From the IMG/VR virus record IMGVR_UViG_3300029822_000952: a stretch of DNA of 22,043 nt; one strand, given 5' to 3'. The stretch is from a virus. Made by a program: the position numbers and the translations under genes. Positions 2,503-14,626 of the stretch are shown here, in pieces (position 1 is the stretch's first letter; each line of letters starts with the position of its first letter). The notes below the pieces were generated by a model. That model made no database searches and was not told where the DNA came from. It saw nothing but the letters and a program-made list of their open reading frames with translations.

Positions 2503-2763
2503 ATGTCCGAGGTCAAGATCACCGCCATGCTCGACCTGGTCAAGGGCGATGCGTCCTGGGAGGAGGTCGGCCGGGACCTAGGGGCGTTCCTGGATGCCAA
2601 TACCCCGGAACTCGACCCCGCCGACGTCGTGCTGGAGGTCAGCTACATCCCCGAGGACGGCGACATCCTCCTGCGGCTGCCCGGACACATGAGCATCTGG
2701 CTCCCCAAATGGCAGCTGGAGAAGGCCATAACGATGGCGGTCCAGAAGGAGGCCGGAGTGTGA
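2503..2763 (+). CDS. Hypothetical protein, 86 aa
   Basis: GGAGGTG RBS; stop directly abuts the integrase ATG. Confidence 0.65.
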   Translation: MSEVKITAMLDLVKGDASWEEVGRDLGAFLDANTPELDPADVVLEVSYIPEDGDILLRLPGHMSIWLPKWQLEKAITMAVQKEAGV

Positions 2764-3807
2764 ATGCCGCCCTCCGAACGCAACGCTCTGGAGTTGATCG
2801 ACGAATACCTGGGGAAAAAGGTTCGTCGTGGCCGACTGAGCCAGGGAAAAGCCGACGCATACCGCGCCAGGTTGATGATCGCTCTGGACTCCCTGCGCGA
2901 CGCTGGGCTGGGCTGCACCCCGTCCACCATCGGGGAGCCGGAGATCGAGCACATACTGGACGTGACCTTCGGGCACGAACGCCCCCGCTCGAAGCGCTGG
3001 GACGTGTCGATCCTGAACGGCTACCTCAAGCACTACGGGAACAAGGTCATCGACGAAATGATGATTACCTGGCCCCAGGACGGCCGGGTGAACGTGGACT
3101 GGCTCTCATCGCAGGAAGCGGTGGCCATGCTGGAGGCCGCCCGGCCGGGCATCGAACAACTGGTCGTCCATCTGGAGCTGCGCCTATGGTTGCGTCGCAT
3201 CGAGGTCCAGCGGATGACGCCGGAGGACATCCAAGAGATGAGGATGCTCGATCCGGAGACGGAGGAGGAGTTCGACGGCTTCATCCACATCCACGGCAAG
3301 GGCCGGGCCGGCGGAAAATGGCGGACGCTGCCATACGCTCCGGAGACCAAGGACATACTGCGGGAGTACGACCGCCAGCGCGAACGGATGATCGCCAAGG
3401 CCAGGGAGATCGACCCGCAGGCACAGCTCCCGAGGGACGAGAACGGCCGGGAGGTCTACGTGATCTACCGACGCCGGGGCCGTTTGGGAGCTTACTCGAA
3501 ATCGGGCATCGACAGCATCGTGGCCAGGGTGGCCAAGAGGGCCGGGATAGCCAGGACCATCACCAATCACACGCTGCGCAGGACCGGAGCGCGGATAGCG
3601 TACTTCGCCGGCGTGCTGCTGGTGGAGATCATGGAGGGGCTGGGCCACTCGTCGGAGAAGGAGACCATCAAGTATCTCGGGCTGACCGTGAACGAGCTTT
3701 CCAGGGCGCAGGCGAAGGTGCATCAGTACCTGCAACGCGTCAAGGCGAGAATGAAGGACGGAGCGCCGCCGGTCGCCCCGTCGGAAGGGGCGAGGGTGTC
3801 GGGATGA
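2764..3807 (+). CDS. int: Tyrosine recombinase/integrase, 347 aa
   Basis: Catalytic set present: R (LWLRRIEV), K (HGKGR..GKWR), H-x-x-R (NHTLRR), LGH, Y (TIKYLG). Confidence 0.93.
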   Translation: MPPSERNALELIDEYLGKKVRRGRLSQGKADAYRARLMIALDSLRDAGLGCTPSTIGEPEIEHILDVTFGHERPRSKRWDVSILNGYLKHYGNKVIDEMMITWPQDGRVNVDWLSSQEAVAMLEAARPGIEQLVVHLELRLWLRRIEVQRMTPEDIQEMRMLDPETEEEFDGFIHIHGKGRAGGKWRTLPYAPETKDILREYDRQRERMIAKAREIDPQAQLPRDENGREVYVIYRRRGRLGAYSKSGIDSIVARVAKRAGIARTITNHTLRRTGARIAYFAGVLLVEIMEGLGHSSEKETIKYLGLTVNELSRAQAKVHQYLQRVKARMKDGAPPVAPSEGARVSG

Positions 3808-4049
3808 TTGTACAGAAGTGTTCAGGGCAAAAAAAGAAGGTAGCCAGTAAGGTGGAGTGGGCTCTGCCGGATTTGACCATCCCACCCAGACTGGAAAATC
3901 TGCAAAATGCCCCTGAAAAAACCCTAGAAAATGGCCCGAAAACTCACGCTCTCGCCGACGAAATGAAGCGGTGGGCACATAGGGCGTACATCCTCAACAG
4001 CGCCGTAGCGGCTGAGCGCCTAGTAGTCATCGAGGAGGCTGGACCATGA
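3804..4049 (+). CDS. Possible 81-aa ORF spanning the attP site
   Basis: ATGA overlap with integrase stop and ATGA overlap with the next gene; no recognisable domain. Confidence 0.4.
   Translation: MIVQKCSGQKKKVASKVEWALPDLTIPPRLENLQNAPEKTLENGPKTHALADEMKRWAHRAYILNSAVAAERLVVIEEAGP
3853..3878 (-). other. attP-like site: tRNA 3' end (T-loop, T-stem, acceptor strand)
   Basis: Minus strand reads GGTCAAATCCGGCAGAGCCCACTCCA = TCAAAT T-loop + CCGGC T-stem + AGAGCCC acceptor strand + A discriminator; 46 nt after integrase; T7 tract follows on the minus strand (3835-3829); no 5' tRNA half present. Confidence 0.75.
3891..3943. repeat. Five phased A-tracts beside attP
   Basis: A-tracts start at 3895, 3904, 3916, 3928, 3939 (spacing 9, 12, 12, 11). 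Confidence 0.6.
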
Positions 4050-6697: not shown

Positions 6698-7113
6698 GGA
6701 CAGACTACGACGACACCATAGCACAGATCGAGCAGGAGTACCGCAGAGGAGAGTACAGCGACCTGGACGCCGACCCCGAGGCCGAGGCCAGGGCCAGGTC
6801 CAGGCAGGAGCAGGAGGCGCTAGACAAGGACCGCAAGCGGGCGCGAGGATCCAGGAGGCTCGCAGAGGTCGCCTTCACCCCCAGTGGCCTGCCGGCCATC
6901 CGCAACGACGGCCGCACCCTGGCCGACGTGGAGCTGGAGCTGGCGGCCGGTCGGTACGGCTACCGCGCCGAGCCCTGGACCGGCCCTACCGGCCCAATGG
7001 CCGTCCCCGAGGTGGCCGACTCCCCGCAGCGGTTCCGCGCTCTCATCGACGCCTGGGAGCGCGACCCGGCCGCCTACCTGGCCGAGCTGCGCCGCAGGGG
7101 GCTGGTGCGATGA
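6694..7113 (+). CDS. Hypothetical protein, 139 aa
   Basis: GGGAGG RBS, ATGA coupling at both ends. Confidence 0.7.
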   Translation: MRTDYDDTIAQIEQEYRRGEYSDLDADPEAEARARSRQEQEALDKDRKRARGSRRLAEVAFTPSGLPAIRNDGRTLADVELELAAGRYGYRAEPWTGPTGPMAVPEVADSPQRFRALIDAWERDPAAYLAELRRRGLVR

Positions 7114-7280
7114 TCGAGCTGACGCGCCGACGCTATCGCTGCCCGGACCCATGCGTCTACAAATGCGTCATTGAGATGACATCCCAGTATGTCAAAAATC
7201 CCATCCAATGCGCCTACGGTCGTGGATGGATATACGACTGGATACTGCTCGATGAGCCGGCCGGGGGTGAGCGGCGATGA
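7110..7280 (+). CDS. Cys-rich microprotein, 56 aa (paralog of 13922-14089)
   Basis: MIELTRRRYRCPDPCVYKC...C...IYDWILLDEPAGGERR. Confidence 0.7.
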   Translation: MIELTRRRYRCPDPCVYKCVIEMTSQYVKNPIQCAYGRGWIYDWILLDEPAGGERR

Positions 7281-7431
7281 TCCAGCAGGGCGAGATCCCC
7301 GACTGCTACGGTATCGAGTGCTGCGATGAGTGCGCGATCGACTGCCCATTTTACATGGACTGCGAGGCCGACAGCCGAGAGGACGAGGATGACGACTGGG
7401 TTGGCGATGGCCTGGGGGGTGAGTGAGCATG
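7259..7431 (+). repeat. 173-bp exact direct repeat, copy 1
   Basis: Identical by eye to 14454-14626 (offset 7195). Confidence 0.95.
7277..7426 (+). CDS. Acidic Cys-rich microprotein, 49 aa, copy 1
   Basis: MIQQGEIPDCYGIECCDECAIDCPFYMDCEADSREDEDDDWVGDGLGGE; RBS and ATGA coupling. Confidence 0.7.
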   Translation: MIQQGEIPDCYGIECCDECAIDCPFYMDCEADSREDEDDDWVGDGLGGE

Positions 7432-8199
7432 TGCAACTACTGGAGCTGCATCCTCCACCGCGACGGCCGCGTGCTCCATGTGCGCGATGAGGACAGCCAC
7501 GAGGCGATCGTACAGCACTACCATCTCGACGACAACCGGCTGACCGACCGCGATTTCATCCGCATCGAGATCACGCCCGGCGACGCACTGAGCCGCGATC
7601 GGGCAGATTGGAGCTATAGGGTCGATGAGCCCCGGACCCTGCCGGACTGGTACGCCAACGACACCAGGCGCTGGGACGCCGTCGTATGGGCCGAGTGGGA
7701 GCGCGTGATGTCCGAGCAGATATGGGACACGCCCTGGTATGGCCGCGTGACGACCATGCGCGACCGTCTCGCCGCCCTCCGCCCCGGAGAGGCAGCGGTA
7801 TCTAGATCCGCCGTCCGCCCCGCGCTCGAAGAGCATCGCAAGCGCCTGATGGCGCTGGACGGCGAGCAACGCCAGTGGGCCATCTCGGAGGTGCGTTTTC
7901 ACAGTCCAGCAGAGTGGGCATCGGTCAGGGACTCGGTCTGGGACTCGGTCTGGGACTCGGTCTGGGACTCGGTCTGGGACTCGGTCTGGGACTCGGTCTG
8001 GGACTCGATCTGGGCATCGGTCAGGGCATCGGTCTGGGCATCGGTCTGGGCATCGGTCAGGGACTCGGTGGTCCATGAGGATGATGCCAACTACGGCCTG
8101 CCGCTGCTCGACATGCTGGCGGCCGGATGTGTGCTCTACGGTATCGATGACGATGGTGTCGCCCACGTGATCATGGTCGGCAAGGATGGAGGTGAGTGA
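7429..8199 (+). CDS. Tetrapeptide (W/R-D/A-S-V) repeat protein, 256 aa
   Basis: ATG after GGGGGTGAGTGAGC; MCNYWSCIL...DSHE N-terminus of a kind seen in phage repeat proteins; 13 tetrapeptide repeats. Confidence 0.75.
   Translation: MCNYWSCILHRDGRVLHVRDEDSHEAIVQHYHLDDNRLTDRDFIRIEITPGDALSRDRADWSYRVDEPRTLPDWYANDTRRWDAVVWAEWERVMSEQIWDTPWYGRVTTMRDRLAALRPGEAAVSRSAVRPALEEHRKRLMALDGEQRQWAISEVRFHSPAEWASVRDSVWDSVWDSVWDSVWDSVWDSVWDSIWASVRASVWASVWASVRDSVVHEDDANYGLPLLDMLAAGCVLYGIDDDGVAHVIMVGKDGGE
7915..8070 (+). repeat. 12-bp tandem repeat, 13 units (consensus TGGGACTCGGTC)
   Basis: WASV RDSV (WDSV)x5 WDSI WASV RASV WASV WASV RDSV. Confidence 0.95.
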
Positions 8200-9986: not shown

Positions 9987-9996
9987 AGGAGATTAC

Positions 9997-10033
9997 ATAT
10001 ACACATAATGTATATATACGCATAATGTATATA
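9997..10033 (+). promoter_or_regulatory. Internal promoter with two tandem palindromic operators
   Basis: ATATAC(A/G)-CATAA-TGTATAT at 9997-10015 and 10014-10032; CATAATGTATATA direct repeat at 10004 and 10021; TATATATA at 10011-10018. Confidence 0.65.
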
Positions 10034-10055
10034 CTACAATTAGAGGTTGAGCAAG

Positions 10056-10360: not shown

Positions 10361-10444
10361 ATGAAGGCGACCATCGGCCTGGAGCTGTTCGGCGAGGTAC
10401 AGGGGAAGCTGATGGAGATAATAGAGCAGGGGCCATCGCAATGA
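10361..10444 (+). pseudogene. 27-aa ORF carrying a duplicate of the 5' end of the 10590 gene
   Basis: MKATIGLELFG then diverges (EVQGKLMEIIEQGPSQ). Confidence 0.5.
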
Positions 10445-10593
10445 GCATCACCATACACCGCTGCAAGCGATGCGGGCATGAGTGGGCGCAGCGCGGCGAG
10501 AGCAAGCCGAAGACATGCCCCAACCCCGCCTGCCGCTCCCCCTATTGGGACAAGGAGCGCACCAGGCCGCGTCCGGAGGCCCGGAAGGCATGA
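10441..10593 (+). CDS. Zinc-ribbon microprotein, 50 aa
   Basis: HRCKRCGHEW...KTCPNPACRSPYWD, a common archaeal/viral zinc-ribbon pattern; ATGA coupling at both ends. Confidence 0.75.
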   Translation: MSITIHRCKRCGHEWAQRGESKPKTCPNPACRSPYWDKERTRPRPEARKA

Positions 10594-11006
10594 AGGCGAC
10601 CATCGGCCTGGAGCTGTTCGGCGACAACAATCGGCAACGTCTTGAAGCTGAGAGGCGGATGATTAATGAGCTATCGCCCGGCTTAGGCGACCAAGTCATC
10701 GGCCAGGACCCCGACAGCATATGGATTGCTGAGATCATTGGCTACAACGACCGCTCTGAATACCAACGCCGGTACCTGCGAGGGCGACGGGATTATACCA
10801 AGGCCAACTCCAAAGGCTCTCGGGGCGTTTTTATGTGGTACATCCTGGAGGCCGGAAAGACCTACGAGGTAAGTTCCAGAGCATCATGGTCGCGCATGGA
10901 CCGATATTTCTGCATCGTGTCTCCAGAGGGCGACATCATAAGGATAAGCAAAGAGGAGGTGGACGCATGGCTGAGCCTGCTTCATGGAAGCGAGAACTGG
11001 GCATAG
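10590..11006 (+). CDS. Conserved hypothetical viral protein upstream of ibrAB, 138 aa
   Basis: DYTKANSKGSRGV...GKTYEV...RYFC motif; overlaps the IbrA start by 40 nt. Confidence 0.7.
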   Translation: MKATIGLELFGDNNRQRLEAERRMINELSPGLGDQVIGQDPDSIWIAEIIGYNDRSEYQRRYLRGRRDYTKANSKGSRGVFMWYILEAGKTYEVSSRASWSRMDRYFCIVSPEGDIIRISKEEVDAWLSLLHGSENWA

Positions 11007-12181
11007 ACGTTCTGACCGCCGCCAGGCAGCGCATCGCCTGGGTGTTCGACAATTTCCCACGCATATACGTCTCGTTCAGCGCTGGAAAGGACAGCACGGT
11101 CATGCTGCACCTGGTGGCCGAGGAGGCGCGTCGCCGCGGCAAGAAGATCGGCGTGCTTCTCGTCGATCTCGAAGGGCAGTACAAACTGACGATCGATCAC
11201 GGGCTGAGCATGTTCCGCGAGTACGAGGACGTGATCGAGCCGTTCTGGGTCTCGCTCCCTCTGCTGCTGCGCAATGCCGTGTCGCAGTACCAGCCCCGCT
11301 GGACGTGCTGGGACCCCGAGGCCCGCAAGGACTGGATACGCCAGCCTCCGGAGATCGCCATCACCGACGAGCGGTTCTTTCCGTTCTTCCGGCGCGGCAT
11401 GGAGTTCGAGGAGTTCGTTCCCGAGTTCGGCCACTGGTACGGGGGCGGCAAGCTGACCGCCTGCTTCGTGGGCATCCGCACCGACGAATCGCTCAACCGC
11501 TGGCGGACCATCGCCTCCTCGACCAAGCAGCGCATGGACGGTAAGGGCTACACCACCTGGATCGGAGAGGCGCTCTACAACGTCTATCCGATCTACGACT
11601 GGCGGACCGAGGACATCTGGCGCTATCACGGCAAATATCCCGACAGGCAGCATAACCAGCTCTACGACCGCATGCACCAGGCGGGGCTGACGGTGCATCA
11701 GATGCGCATCTGCCAGCCGTACGGTGACGACCAGCGCAAGGGACTATGGCTGTTTCACATCATCGAGCCGGAGACGTGGTCGCGCGTCGTCGCCCGCGTC
11801 AACGGCGCGAACCAGGGCGCGCTGTACGCTCAGGAGAACGGCAACATCCTGGGCATCAACAAGGTCACGCTGCCGCCCGGGCATACATGGCAGAGCTTCT
11901 CGATATTGCTTCTGCAATCGATGCCGGAGCGGACGGCGGACCATTACAAGGACAAGATCGCGGTGTTCCTGCACTGGTGGTCTCAGAGGGGCTACCCGGA
12001 CGGCATACCGGACGACGGGGAGATGAGCAAGGACGCCCCGAGCTGGAAGCGCATCTGTAAATCGTTGCTCCGCAACGACTACTGGTGCAAGGGGCTGTCG
12101 TTCACGCAGACAAGCTCAGCGGCATACGAGCGCTACAAGAAGATGATGAAGGTGAGGCGGAATAAATGGAACCTGATCTAG
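10967..12181 (+). CDS. ibrA: IbrA-like PAPS-reductase/PP-loop protein with DUF3440-like C-terminus, 404 aa
   Basis: YVSFSAGKDS PP-loop, GIRTDESLNR, YPIYDW, MRICQPYG, WKRICK.LL.ND motifs; GAGGAGGTG RBS before ATG 10967. Confidence 0.88.
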   Translation: MAEPASWKRELGIDVLTAARQRIAWVFDNFPRIYVSFSAGKDSTVMLHLVAEEARRRGKKIGVLLVDLEGQYKLTIDHGLSMFREYEDVIEPFWVSLPLLLRNAVSQYQPRWTCWDPEARKDWIRQPPEIAITDERFFPFFRRGMEFEEFVPEFGHWYGGGKLTACFVGIRTDESLNRWRTIASSTKQRMDGKGYTTWIGEALYNVYPIYDWRTEDIWRYHGKYPDRQHNQLYDRMHQAGLTVHQMRICQPYGDDQRKGLWLFHIIEPETWSRVVARVNGANQGALYAQENGNILGINKVTLPPGHTWQSFSILLLQSMPERTADHYKDKIAVFLHWWSQRGYPDGIPDDGEMSKDAPSWKRICKSLLRNDYWCKGLSFTQTSSAAYERYKKMMKVRRNKWNLI

Positions 12182-12687
12182 AATGGACGGCGAGGCATCC
12201 GGTGTCCCACGTTCGGTGGGTGCCGGCCGGGCAGGTGCACGCGAACGACTACAACCCCAATTCCGTGGCTCCGCCGGAGATGAGGCTGCTGCGCATCAGC
12301 ATCGAGGAGGACGGGTTCACGCAGCCCATCGTGGTGTGGCAGGTTGCCGATAACGAGTATGAGGTCGTGGACGGGTTCCACCGCCACCTCGTCGGCCGAG
12401 AGCTCGGAATGACCCATCTGCCCGTCGTGGTGGTCAACCAGGACCGCTCCGACCGAGGCGACAGGATCGCGTCGACCATCCGGCATAATCGGGCCAGGGG
12501 CAAGCACCAGGTCGGCGCCATGAGCGACATCGTGCAGGAACTGGCGCGACGCAACTGGAGCAACGAGAAGATAGGGCGGGAGCTCGGCATGGAGCCCGAC
12601 GAAGTCCTGCGGCTCAAGCAGATCTCCGGGCTGGCGGAACTGTTCGCCGATGAGGAGTTCAGCGAGGCATGGGATGTCGATGTGTGA
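12166..12687 (+). CDS. ibrB: IbrB-like ParB/Srx-domain protein, 173 aa
   Basis: ANDYNPN.V...SI.EDGFTQPIV...VVDGFHR...STIRHNRARG; overlaps the IbrA stop by 16 nt. Confidence 0.88.
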   Translation: MEPDLEWTARHPVSHVRWVPAGQVHANDYNPNSVAPPEMRLLRISIEEDGFTQPIVVWQVADNEYEVVDGFHRHLVGRELGMTHLPVVVVNQDRSDRGDRIASTIRHNRARGKHQVGAMSDIVQELARRNWSNEKIGRELGMEPDEVLRLKQISGLAELFADEEFSEAWDVDV

Positions 12688-12717: not shown

Positions 12718-12993
12718 ATGAGAGCCGCCCTATACGCCAGGGTCTCGACCGACGACCACGACCAGAACCCCGAGACCCAGCTCCGCGTGCTGCGGAAGAT
12801 GGCCGAGGCCCGAGGATACACGATCTTCCGGGAGTACATCGATGAAGGATGGTCGGGCGCTGACCCAGGCCGCCCTGGCATGATAAAGCTCCGCAAGGAC
12901 GCCAAGGCCCACCGCTTCGACGTGCTGCTGGCCCAGGACACCATGGATCGTCTGGTCAGGATGCGGGCCGCCGTCGAGGGGAGGAGAGCATGA
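12718..12993 (+). pseudogene. Truncated serine recombinase (resolvase catalytic domain only), 91 aa
   Basis: LYARVST catalytic Ser, SG...RPG, DRLVR, then ends without helix E or a DNA-binding domain. Confidence 0.75.
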
Positions 12994-13307
12994 TCGCCGC
13001 CGAAGTGCTCCAGGCAGAATGGCTCGACCGCCCGGTCAGGCAGATGGCGGCCATCGCTCACATCGGGGAGATGCAGGAGCGGGTGGAACGTGGCCACGCC
13101 GACATGGGCGAGACCACGGCGCTCCGTATCCGCGAGACGCTGGGGGCCAGTAACAACGTCTACAAATTGCTCCAGATACTCCAGGAGGACGGCCTCATAC
13201 GCCAGGGTCCAGTGGTCAGGGTCAGATGGCGCTATTCCGCGCCGTGCTACGAGCTGACTCCGCTTGGCTGGGAGCTGTACCATTCTATCAGGAGGCTCGT
13301 GCAATGA
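12990..13307 (+). CDS. Winged-helix protein, 105 aa
   Basis: TTALRIRETLGASNNVYKLLQILQEDGLI...YELTPLG. Confidence 0.7.
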   Translation: MIAAEVLQAEWLDRPVRQMAAIAHIGEMQERVERGHADMGETTALRIRETLGASNNVYKLLQILQEDGLIRQGPVVRVRWRYSAPCYELTPLGWELYHSIRRLVQ

Positions 13308-13749: not shown

Positions 13750-13922
13750 GCTGCCCTCTGAAGCCCGGCATCTCGTGCGCCAGGACGTCCGAGATGGTCG
13801 AGTCGACTCCTTGCCCAGGCTGCACCGCCGGAGACGCTAACGGCCGTTCTAGACGCCCTGAGCCTGTGCGTGCCACACTCATCGCCACCGTCCGAGTGGT
13901 AGATCCCATGGGGGTGCGGTGA
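13746..13922 (+). CDS. Cys-rich microprotein, 58 aa (paralog of the 5157 N-terminus)
   Basis: VSCPLKPGISC...PCPGCTAGDANGR; GAGGTGA RBS, GTGA overlap. Confidence 0.65.
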   Translation: MSCPLKPGISCARTSEMVESTPCPGCTAGDANGRSRRPEPVRATLIATVRVVDPMGVR

Positions 13923-14089
13923 TGGTCGAGCTGACGCGCCGCCGCTATCGCTGCCCGGACTCCTGCGGCCTGGATTGCACCATCGAGGTCAACAGCACCA
14001 GGGTGATCGATGACTGGGAGTGCCCCGGCAACCGTGGGCACATCTACGACTGGATACTGCTCGATGAGCAAGATGGAGGTGAGCAGTGA
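13922..14089 (+). CDS. Cys-rich microprotein, 55 aa (paralog of 7110-7280)
   Basis: MVELTRRRYRCPDSCGLDC...C...IYDWILLDEQDGGEQ. Confidence 0.7.
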   Translation: MVELTRRRYRCPDSCGLDCTIEVNSTRVIDDWECPGNRGHIYDWILLDEQDGGEQ

Positions 14090-14475
14090 TGGCCCGTAAG
14101 AGAACTTGTTCCTGGTGCGGTCCAGGCGACCAATCCGGACCCAATAACGGGTTCTACTACCTGTGCGAGGAATGCTACGACGAATGGGACTATTACATGC
14201 ACATAGGGAGGCTGGCCGTCAAGGAGTTGAAGCTGACCCACCCAGGCGCGTACCGGAGCCGGATGGAGGACATGATCAGGTCCCATTCCGACTTGTTCAG
14301 GCGGTTCGGCAATCTCAAGACTATCCAGACAGCGCTAGATAAGGGCGATATGGGCCCGATGGTGGAAGCCCTCCCGAAGGAGTTCGCAATGAAGCATTAC
14401 CCGGAGCATTTCGACGAGGCGGGGAACTGTAAATCGAACGTCTTGGCCCGTAAGGCCGGGGGTGAGCGGCGATGA
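14089..14475 (+). CDS. Zinc-finger protein, 128 aa
   Basis: CSWCG...YLCEECY; ends in GGERR. Confidence 0.7.
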   Translation: MARKRTCSWCGPGDQSGPNNGFYYLCEECYDEWDYYMHIGRLAVKELKLTHPGAYRSRMEDMIRSHSDLFRRFGNLKTIQTALDKGDMGPMVEALPKEFAMKHYPEHFDEAGNCKSNVLARKAGGERR

Positions 14476-14626
14476 TCCAGCAGGGCGAGATCCCCGACTG
14501 CTACGGTATCGAGTGCTGCGATGAGTGCGCGATCGACTGCCCATTTTACATGGACTGCGAGGCCGACAGCCGAGAGGACGAGGATGACGACTGGGTTGGC
14601 GATGGCCTGGGGGGTGAGTGAGCATG
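14454..14626 (+). repeat. 173-bp exact direct repeat, copy 2
   Basis: Identical by eye to 7259-7431. Confidence 0.95.
14472..14621 (+). CDS. Acidic Cys-rich microprotein, 49 aa, copy 2
   Basis: Identical to 7277-7426. Confidence 0.7.
   Translation: MIQQGEIPDCYGIECCDECAIDCPFYMDCEADSREDEDDDWVGDGLGGE

Follow-up and report, generated by a model that had tools for sequence, protein, structure and literature searches.

The IbrA/IbrB pair is known from Escherichia coli (the IbrAB island of ECOR-9 and O157:H7 and, as the paralogues YbdN/YbdM, K-12), where IbrA has two domains and IbrB combines a ParB-like domain with a helix-turn-helix. Activation of prophage-gene expression is the property behind the Ibr name, and the study of Sandt et al. 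is reportedly the sole experimental report on the pair. IbrA/IbrB is among the most widespread phage gene pairs without known biochemistry and is often mislabelled as a sulfur-metabolism gene. The pair has also been described in HeimV2, a virus-like element of Heimdallarchaeum, with closest relatives associated with bacteriophages and Firmicutes (PMC8813620), and it lies in genes 6-8 of the Chlorobiaceae phage CV-1-33 (MT192033.1). Here, we analyze a virus-derived DNA stretch of 22,043 nucleotides (IMG/VR record IMGVR_UViG_3300029822_000952; hereafter the window), from a provirus-like element with indirectly supported links to archaea, that carries an IbrAB module with the same IbrA and IbrB domain composition as in E. 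coli. This module is an ordinary member, in a new host group, of a known, unsolved family that has an archaeal precedent in HeimV2.

The module occupies positions 10590-12687 and consists of three overlapping open reading frames (ORFs) on the + strand, in the order given by the earlier note: orf138 (10590-11006), IbrA (10967-12181) and IbrB (12166-12687). The best start of IbrA is the ATG at 10967, with GAGGAGGTG 6 nt upstream, and its overlap with the 3' end of orf138 is 40 nt long; IbrB, preceded by the ribosome-binding site GGTGAGG, overlaps the IbrA stop by 16 nt, and the next gene, likewise preceded by a ribosome-binding site, begins 30 nt past the IbrB stop. IbrA contains a PAPS-reductase-like PP-loop domain (approximately residues 9-266) followed by a helical DUF3440 region, and matches Pfam PF11922 (DUF3440, E 9e-36) and PF01507 (PAPS_reduct, E 7.8e-12), both above cut-offs, as well as phrog_2302 in PHROGs (E 6e-81, covering positions 5-375 of 381). 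IbrB combines an N-terminal domain of ParB/Srx fold (PF02195 ParB_N, E 1.5e-09; phrog_2159, E 9e-66) with a C-terminal helix-turn-helix. These E-values lie far outside what chance would give. Full-length identities to the O157:H7 proteins reach 51% for IbrA (E 3e-149) and 60% for IbrB (E 3e-70; annotated by PGAP as ‘IbrB-like domain-containing protein’), and the two loci have in common the A-then-B order, the 16-nt overlap and all family-invariant motifs. Because of these domain matches, the O157:H7 identities and the same 16-nt overlap, the pair in the window is a true member of the IbrAB family. The ORF coordinates and the Pfam and PHROGs matches thus bear out the single overlapping block, composed of an IbrA-like, an IbrB-like and a third gene, that had been recognized from the sequence, and orf138-IbrA-IbrB is an intact IbrAB-type operon.

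The E. coli pair sits in an enterobacterial island with an AAA-domain gene upstream at the O157 locus, whereas the copy in the window resides in an archaea-associated provirus with orf138 in that place; in addition, its IbrB is a short form, without the N-terminal helical extension present in some homologues. The module of CV-1-33 has the same layout of small ORF, DUF3440 and ParBc genes with a 16-nt overlap between A and B, and is 64% identical in DNA sequence across the module, but CV-1-33 is a tailed phage infecting a green sulfur bacterium, unlike the element studied here; the homologous IbrA gene of a copy in a Chlorobiaceae metagenome-assembled genome (MAG; locus L005) has about 45% G+C, versus 62% in the window. 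Compared by its description only, HeimV2 resembles the window in having an IbrAB pair within an archaeal mobile element and in the same picture of phage-like relatives (PMC8813620), and differs from it in the archaeal phylum and in its 44 kb with tail-fibre predictions versus an element of about 22 kb.

The family is very large. IbrA has more than 8,000 protein matches at E ≤ 1e-10, the closest of which are one cluster at 97% identity and proteins at 68-77%. All of the top 80 species-genome loci are bacterial and come from many phyla, and the gene is also present on about 600 viral contigs. In a DNA search, genes annotated by PGAP as ‘IbrB-like domain-containing protein’ were matched in 588 of 5,426 E. 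coli genomes. We surveyed 160 loci holding IbrA, mostly in tailed-phage or chromosomal contexts, using tblastn to find IbrB, which accompanies IbrA in all but two of them (158/160). The identities of the two proteins to those of the window co-vary across loci (Spearman 0.72), and IbrA and IbrB are the only constant companions in the survey.

An alignment of 36 IbrA sequences contains 58 invariant columns, all of them retained in the window protein, including the PP-loop S-x-G-K-D-S, the PAPS-reductase-fold segments GIRxDESxNR and YPIYDW, and RxCxP[YF]G. The PP-loop itself, an ATP pyrophosphate-binding motif, reads SFSAGKDS (11072-11095, + strand; S38, G40, K41, D42 and S43 invariant). The earlier note had spelled it correctly and had singled it out as departing from the usual form, which does not stand: the family consensus is SFSGGKDS, and alanine replaces its first glycine in 40 of 150 homologous loci and 6 of the 120 closest proteins, a frequency at which we rejected any special meaning of this spelling. 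The AlphaFold2 (AF2) model of IbrA (pLDDT 81.8) shows a nucleotide alpha-hydrolase domain of the PAPS-reductase-like type in residues 9-266, whose nearest fold is the PAPS domain of FAD synthase (Z 15.4, rmsd 3.6, 175 aligned residues), followed by APS reductase (Z 14.7) and CysD (Z 14.2) and then by PP-loop thiolases and LarE (Z 10-12); no solved IbrA structure was found in the PDB.

The reading of IbrA as a CysH-type auxiliary gene for sulfur assimilation, a frequent label in viromics, is scarcely credible. It would agree with the PF01507 match, with the name ‘phosphoadenosine phosphosulfate sulfurtransferase’ given by JGI to relatives, and with a preprint whose viral CysH tree has DUF3440-bearing proteins in one of its clades (10.1101/2021.01.05.425418). 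However, the CysH models score far below their cut-offs on IbrA (TIGR02057, 31.7 vs 254.2; TIGR00434, 26.7 vs 165.1), as does the CysD model, and the IbrA sequence contains no ECG[LI]H catalytic cysteine motif and no C-terminal ECGLH tail. The SFSAGKDS of IbrA aligns with SSSFGIQA in CysH, such that the ATP-type PP-loop of IbrA is lacking in CysH, and the obligate pairing with a ParB-like protein is likewise at odds with a CysH function.

DNA phosphorothioation offers another parallel: DndB, of the ParB superfamily, is paired with DndC, a PP-loop ATP pyrophosphatase that acts on DNA and is characterized by a three-cysteine 4Fe-4S site and a cysteine dyad (PMC10853773). In IbrA, the only invariant cysteine is C249, within the motif RICQPYG (11705-11725, + strand) in a loop just past the core domain; RxCxP[YF]G is found in 270 of 270 homologues, and the loop is modeled with low confidence (pLDDT 58-75). 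C114 and C374 are conserved at ≥90% in the 36-sequence alignment. The invariant cysteine could carry sulfur, and sulfur transferases of the LarE and TtuA type appear among the fold matches at Z of about 10. On the other hand, the TIGR03183 DndC model reaches only 21.5 bits on IbrA against a cut-off of 290.4, the PADLOC DndC model matches a fragment (E 5e-07, residues 168-257), PADLOC BrxP matches 21 residues only (E 1.4e-4), and PADLOC SspD gives no match at E ≤ 0.01. IbrA contains neither the three-cysteine 4Fe-4S site nor a cysteine dyad, and no CC or CxxC pair. Likewise, no DndA, DndD, DndE or Ssp partner was found among the 17 window ORFs scanned (all five of at least 399 aa included), no cysteine desulfurase and no SspA-C among the large ones, and no Dnd/Ssp-type cluster recurs in the 160 loci. 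The analogy with DndC and SspD drawn in the earlier note therefore fails on the protein models, the single invariant cysteine and the missing partner genes, and Dnd- or Ssp-like phosphorothioation is a very unlikely activity for this module.

IbrB is equally conserved. Across an alignment of 30 sequences, the motifs NDYNPN, DGFHR, RHNRARGKH and the C-terminal helix-turn-helix are invariant or nearly so. DGFHR (12370-12384, + strand; D69-G70-F71-H72-R73), itself invariant in the family, stands in place of the GERRxRA arginine patch of ParB, and the helix-turn-helix-like segment KIGRELGMEPDEVLRLKQ (12568-12621, + strand), with L140, G141, M142, E146, L148, R149, L150 and Q152 invariant, is 69% identical at the DNA level to E. 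coli IbrB-like genes. Weak profile matches to SbnI and SerK indicate that its ParB/Srx-fold relatives include kinases. The ParB_N domain might suggest that IbrB is the partition protein of a circular episome and that IbrA is incidental, which we regard as highly improbable: IbrB reaches only 31.7 on the TIGR00180 ParB partition model (cut-off 58.45), DGFHR takes the place of the GERR box, no ParA occurs among the window ORFs scanned, and IbrB is tied to IbrA in almost every surveyed locus, mostly in tailed-phage or chromosomal settings.

The best reading of these data, which we hold tentatively and rate as slightly short of probable, is that the module encodes an ATP-dependent, DNA-directed marking complex. 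It is favored because the PP-loop and the invariant residues of IbrA are intact and its N-terminal domain is closest in fold to ATP- and adenylate-handling enzymes, because IbrB keeps DGFHR, RHNRARGKH and the helix-turn-helix and is paired with IbrA nearly everywhere, and because the recurrent neighbors of relatives act on DNA. The latter include SNF2 helicases (7 loci, directly upstream of IbrA in 4 of them), DnaB helicases (8 loci), ResIII/DEAD helicases (3 loci) and the terminase gpA (5 loci), to which the phage CV-1-33 adds ERF and RusA genes near its module. DNA-modifying enzymes that work with a ParB-superfamily partner are already known from DndB/DndC (PMC10853773) and from DpdB/DpdA (PMC12839542). 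In the latter, a 7-deazaguanine modification system, a ParB-like NTPase assists the DNA-modifying enzyme and thereby provides a functional model for IbrB (PMC12839542); the likeness is one of description only, and the enzyme partner is a homologue of tRNA-guanine transglycosylase and not a PP-loop protein. That the module modifies DNA or a nucleotide, as the earlier note proposed, is thus a reasonable inference, and a role in counter-defense is possible.

As to substrate, chemistry and biological role, we infer the following scheme. IbrB, through its ParB/Srx fold and helix-turn-helix, would bind DNA, probably in a nucleotide-dependent manner, and position IbrA; the PP-loop enzyme would then spend ATP, release pyrophosphate and adenylate an oxygen of the DNA or of a nucleotide bound to it, and the adenylated target would be substituted or left marked. 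The invariant Cys249, on its mobile loop, may participate. The outcome would be a covalent DNA mark changing how the DNA is read or cut, and the activation of prophage genes could be a consequence of this mark or a separate regulatory role. Since the module is kept in both bacterial and archaeal settings, a universal target such as DNA is favored over a bacterium-specific protein; the substrate of IbrAB has to be present in archaea too, and this speaks for DNA or nucleotides rather than for bacterial host proteins.

Several points weigh against such a marking complex. PP-loop enzymes can also use RNA, small molecules or proteins as substrates, as exemplified by the Cap9-CdnD complex among the fold matches of IbrA, and we know of no IbrAB for which a modification chemistry has been shown. 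No enzyme supplying a donor was found in the window, and neither the DUF3440 region nor orf138 gave a functional lead in structure, profile and Atlas searches; for the DUF3440 C-terminal region (residues 256-404, with 267-404 helical in the AF2 model), a profile search of PDB sequences and an Atlas search yielded nothing usable. The fold matches of IbrA include a protein-modifying PP-loop protein (9nto). Together with the closest folds, which adenylylate small substrates (FMN for FAD synthase, sulfate for CysD), and with the kinases among the ParB/Srx-fold relatives of IbrB, this structure would suit a module acting on free nucleotides, small molecules or proteins instead of DNA, for example by destroying or making a signaling nucleotide or by modifying orf138 or a host protein, an activity that could serve counter-defense. 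We consider this quite unlikely, given the conserved helix-turn-helix of IbrB, the helicases and replication genes that recur as neighbors, and the absence of a matching defense or anti-defense family.

The pair might also act purely in transcription regulation, with IbrB binding promoters via its helix-turn-helix and IbrA serving as a co-activator or ligand sensor. The conservation of the helix-turn-helix is compatible with such a function, publications describe the pair as regulators (PMC8813620, PMC4490671), and the ybdNM operon of E. coli K-12, encoding the paralogues YbdN/YbdM, is itself under a LysR repressor (PMC9068703). Nevertheless, a complete catalytic PP-loop and the 58 residues invariant across phyla exceed the needs of a sensor, the module has been kept in association with archaea, whose transcription apparatus is unlike the bacterial one, and gene activation could itself follow from a DNA mark, so that we deem pure regulation unlikely.

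In a broader proposal that we consider doubtful, IbrAB and its small partner may be a host-independent DNA machine operating in bacteria and archaea, with a chemistry undescribed for DNA. For example, IbrB, with kinases among its fold relatives, and IbrA, with nearest folds that adenylylate oxygens of phosphate or sulfate, could jointly equip DNA with a group that is ADP-linked or activated in another way. Target choice would fall to the exchangeable third proteins (orf138 in the window, elsewhere a small helical protein, SNF2 or others), and the archaeal copy would be the cleanest evidence for a universal target.

The first gene of the module, orf138, encodes a 138-aa protein that is an unnamed, conserved third component. 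A homologue is located directly upstream of IbrA in 61 of the 160 loci, separated from it by −16 to +126 nt, and the orf138 profile matches 1,437 cluster representatives at E ≤ 1e-3; in one major form of the module, this protein regularly makes up the third component. Its AF2 model (pLDDT 91.6) is a confident beta-rich domain with flanking helices, to which we assign no fold because the best Foldseek match has an E of 0.1 and the best VIA-wide match a Z of 4.2, to generic beta-sandwiches. Its 50 best fold matches include no GNAT, so we do not class orf138 as one. No Pfam, NCBIfam or PADLOC family matched orf138, Pfam searches of individual family members gave only five weak Phage_Gp111 matches (best E 0.008), and the Atlas feature search did not exceed 0.80, the chance level. 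Some members of the family are longer, of about 255-261 aa (P0129, P0135, P0136 and P0188): one is a partial tandem duplication and the other three have a C-terminal helical extension without Pfam match; family members in fused form contain no known domain. The module has a second major layout, in which a small helical protein lies between IbrB and IbrA (L023:1399-1815, L027:747-1130 and about 20 others). It belongs to an unnamed family with the motifs WE, SCEHNLT and NRxAWxGxAAC, and is fused to the C-terminus of IbrB in six loci, in proteins of about 375 aa (e.g., L052, L053, L069). We tested and rejected the identity of orf138 with this small protein; their hhalign probability is 0.2%, and the two are therefore unrelated. 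The module family would draw on several small partners that can replace one another, orf138 among them.

The phylogeny of IbrA (112 rows, unrooted) agrees with the origin in bacterial phages advanced in the earlier note. The window protein groups with a twin of 97% identity and a relative of 77% (support 99) within an 11-row clade (support 98) that contains the Peptococcaceae locus L001, a protein named by NCBI as from a Bacilli bacterium MAG (P0004) and viral contigs; the rest of the tree is bacterial or viral throughout. IbrA thus nests beside Bacillota-type and viral sequences, and the best match of IbrB is in the same Peptococcaceae locus (81%). With this nesting, the exclusively bacterial top 80 loci and the roughly 600 viral contigs, bacterial phages are the most likely source, and a transfer from a bacterial phage to an archaeal element is the parsimonious reading of the sequences, a direction that is not proven because the tree is unrooted. 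The transfer was not recent, since the codon use of the module matches that of the element. G+C at third codon positions (GC3) is 0.84-0.87 in IbrA and IbrB and 0.68 in orf138, compared with 0.69-0.88 in the backbone genes, and is 0.46-0.51 in the nearest bacterial and viral homologues; the correlation of relative synonymous codon usage is 0.83 between module and backbone and 0.85 between the two halves of the backbone. A recent acquisition was rejected on these values. The provirus-like element would thus have captured the operon from bacterial phages and kept it long enough for codon adaptation. An intact and compositionally adapted copy in an archaea-associated provirus means that IbrA and IbrB move together between domains of life.

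The archaeal setting assumed in the earlier note receives indirect support only. An archaeal type IV pilin domain is encoded at 212-730, and the cluster of IbrA at ≥90% identity, with 30 members from many samples, includes one deposited as a protein of a Methanomassiliicoccaceae archaeon (HPP44499.1, binned in a MAG). The association of this provirus-like element with Methanomassiliicoccaceae is thus indirectly supported. Proviruses with VP4-like fusogens have been published for the order of Methanomassiliicoccus (PMC10919331). Queries with the 775-aa protein or the ATPase of the window retrieved no related provirus from viral contigs, and two metagenome scans likewise gave no match.

Upstream of the module, a 50-aa zinc-ribbon ORF (10441-10593) overlaps with its stop the ATG of orf138 (ATGA). 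The start of orf138 is duplicated exactly over 35 bp (10361-10395 and 10590-10624); the copies are spaced by 229 bp, the unit between them holds the zinc-ribbon ORF, and orf138 remains intact. The sole AT-rich gap upstream of the module is the intergenic stretch at 9987-10046 (+ strand), which contains two direct copies of CATAATGTATATA, as read directly from the sequence, and downstream of which the genes are coupled through overlaps; it may be a candidate archaeal promoter/operator of the whole gene string running into the module. A scan for bacterial promoters and terminators gave counts at the level of shuffled sequence, with a bacterial consensus that does not apply to archaea.

Downstream of IbrB, the region 12718-13307 begins with a 91-aa ORF that matches positions 1-78 of 145 of PF00239 (E 7.6e-16), that is, only the N-terminal half of the catalytic domain of serine recombinases, with the serine of YARVST present; an out-of-frame 105-aa ORF without family match follows. 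The two ORFs together have the appearance of a resolvase gene that was truncated or frameshifted. No resolvase was found next to IbrAB in the 160 other loci.

At a larger scale, IbrAB lies in a 7.2-kb block, otherwise filled by small ORFs, with one copy of a perfect 173-bp direct repeat on either side (7259-7431 and 14454-14626). Adjoining sequence occurs in diverged copies (78-80%) at 7095-7279 and 13907-14091, so the flanks of the block are paralogous segments. Elsewhere in the window, a 446-aa ORF (2709-4049) has a G+C of 0.81 at first codon positions (GC1) and a GC3 of 0.45, the opposite of all other window genes; it is probably not the coding frame, and the overlapping frame 2764-3807 may be the real gene instead. 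Finally, about 13 tandem copies of the 12-nt unit GGGACTCGGTCT and its variants extend over 7891-8093, within overlapping ORFs on both strands.

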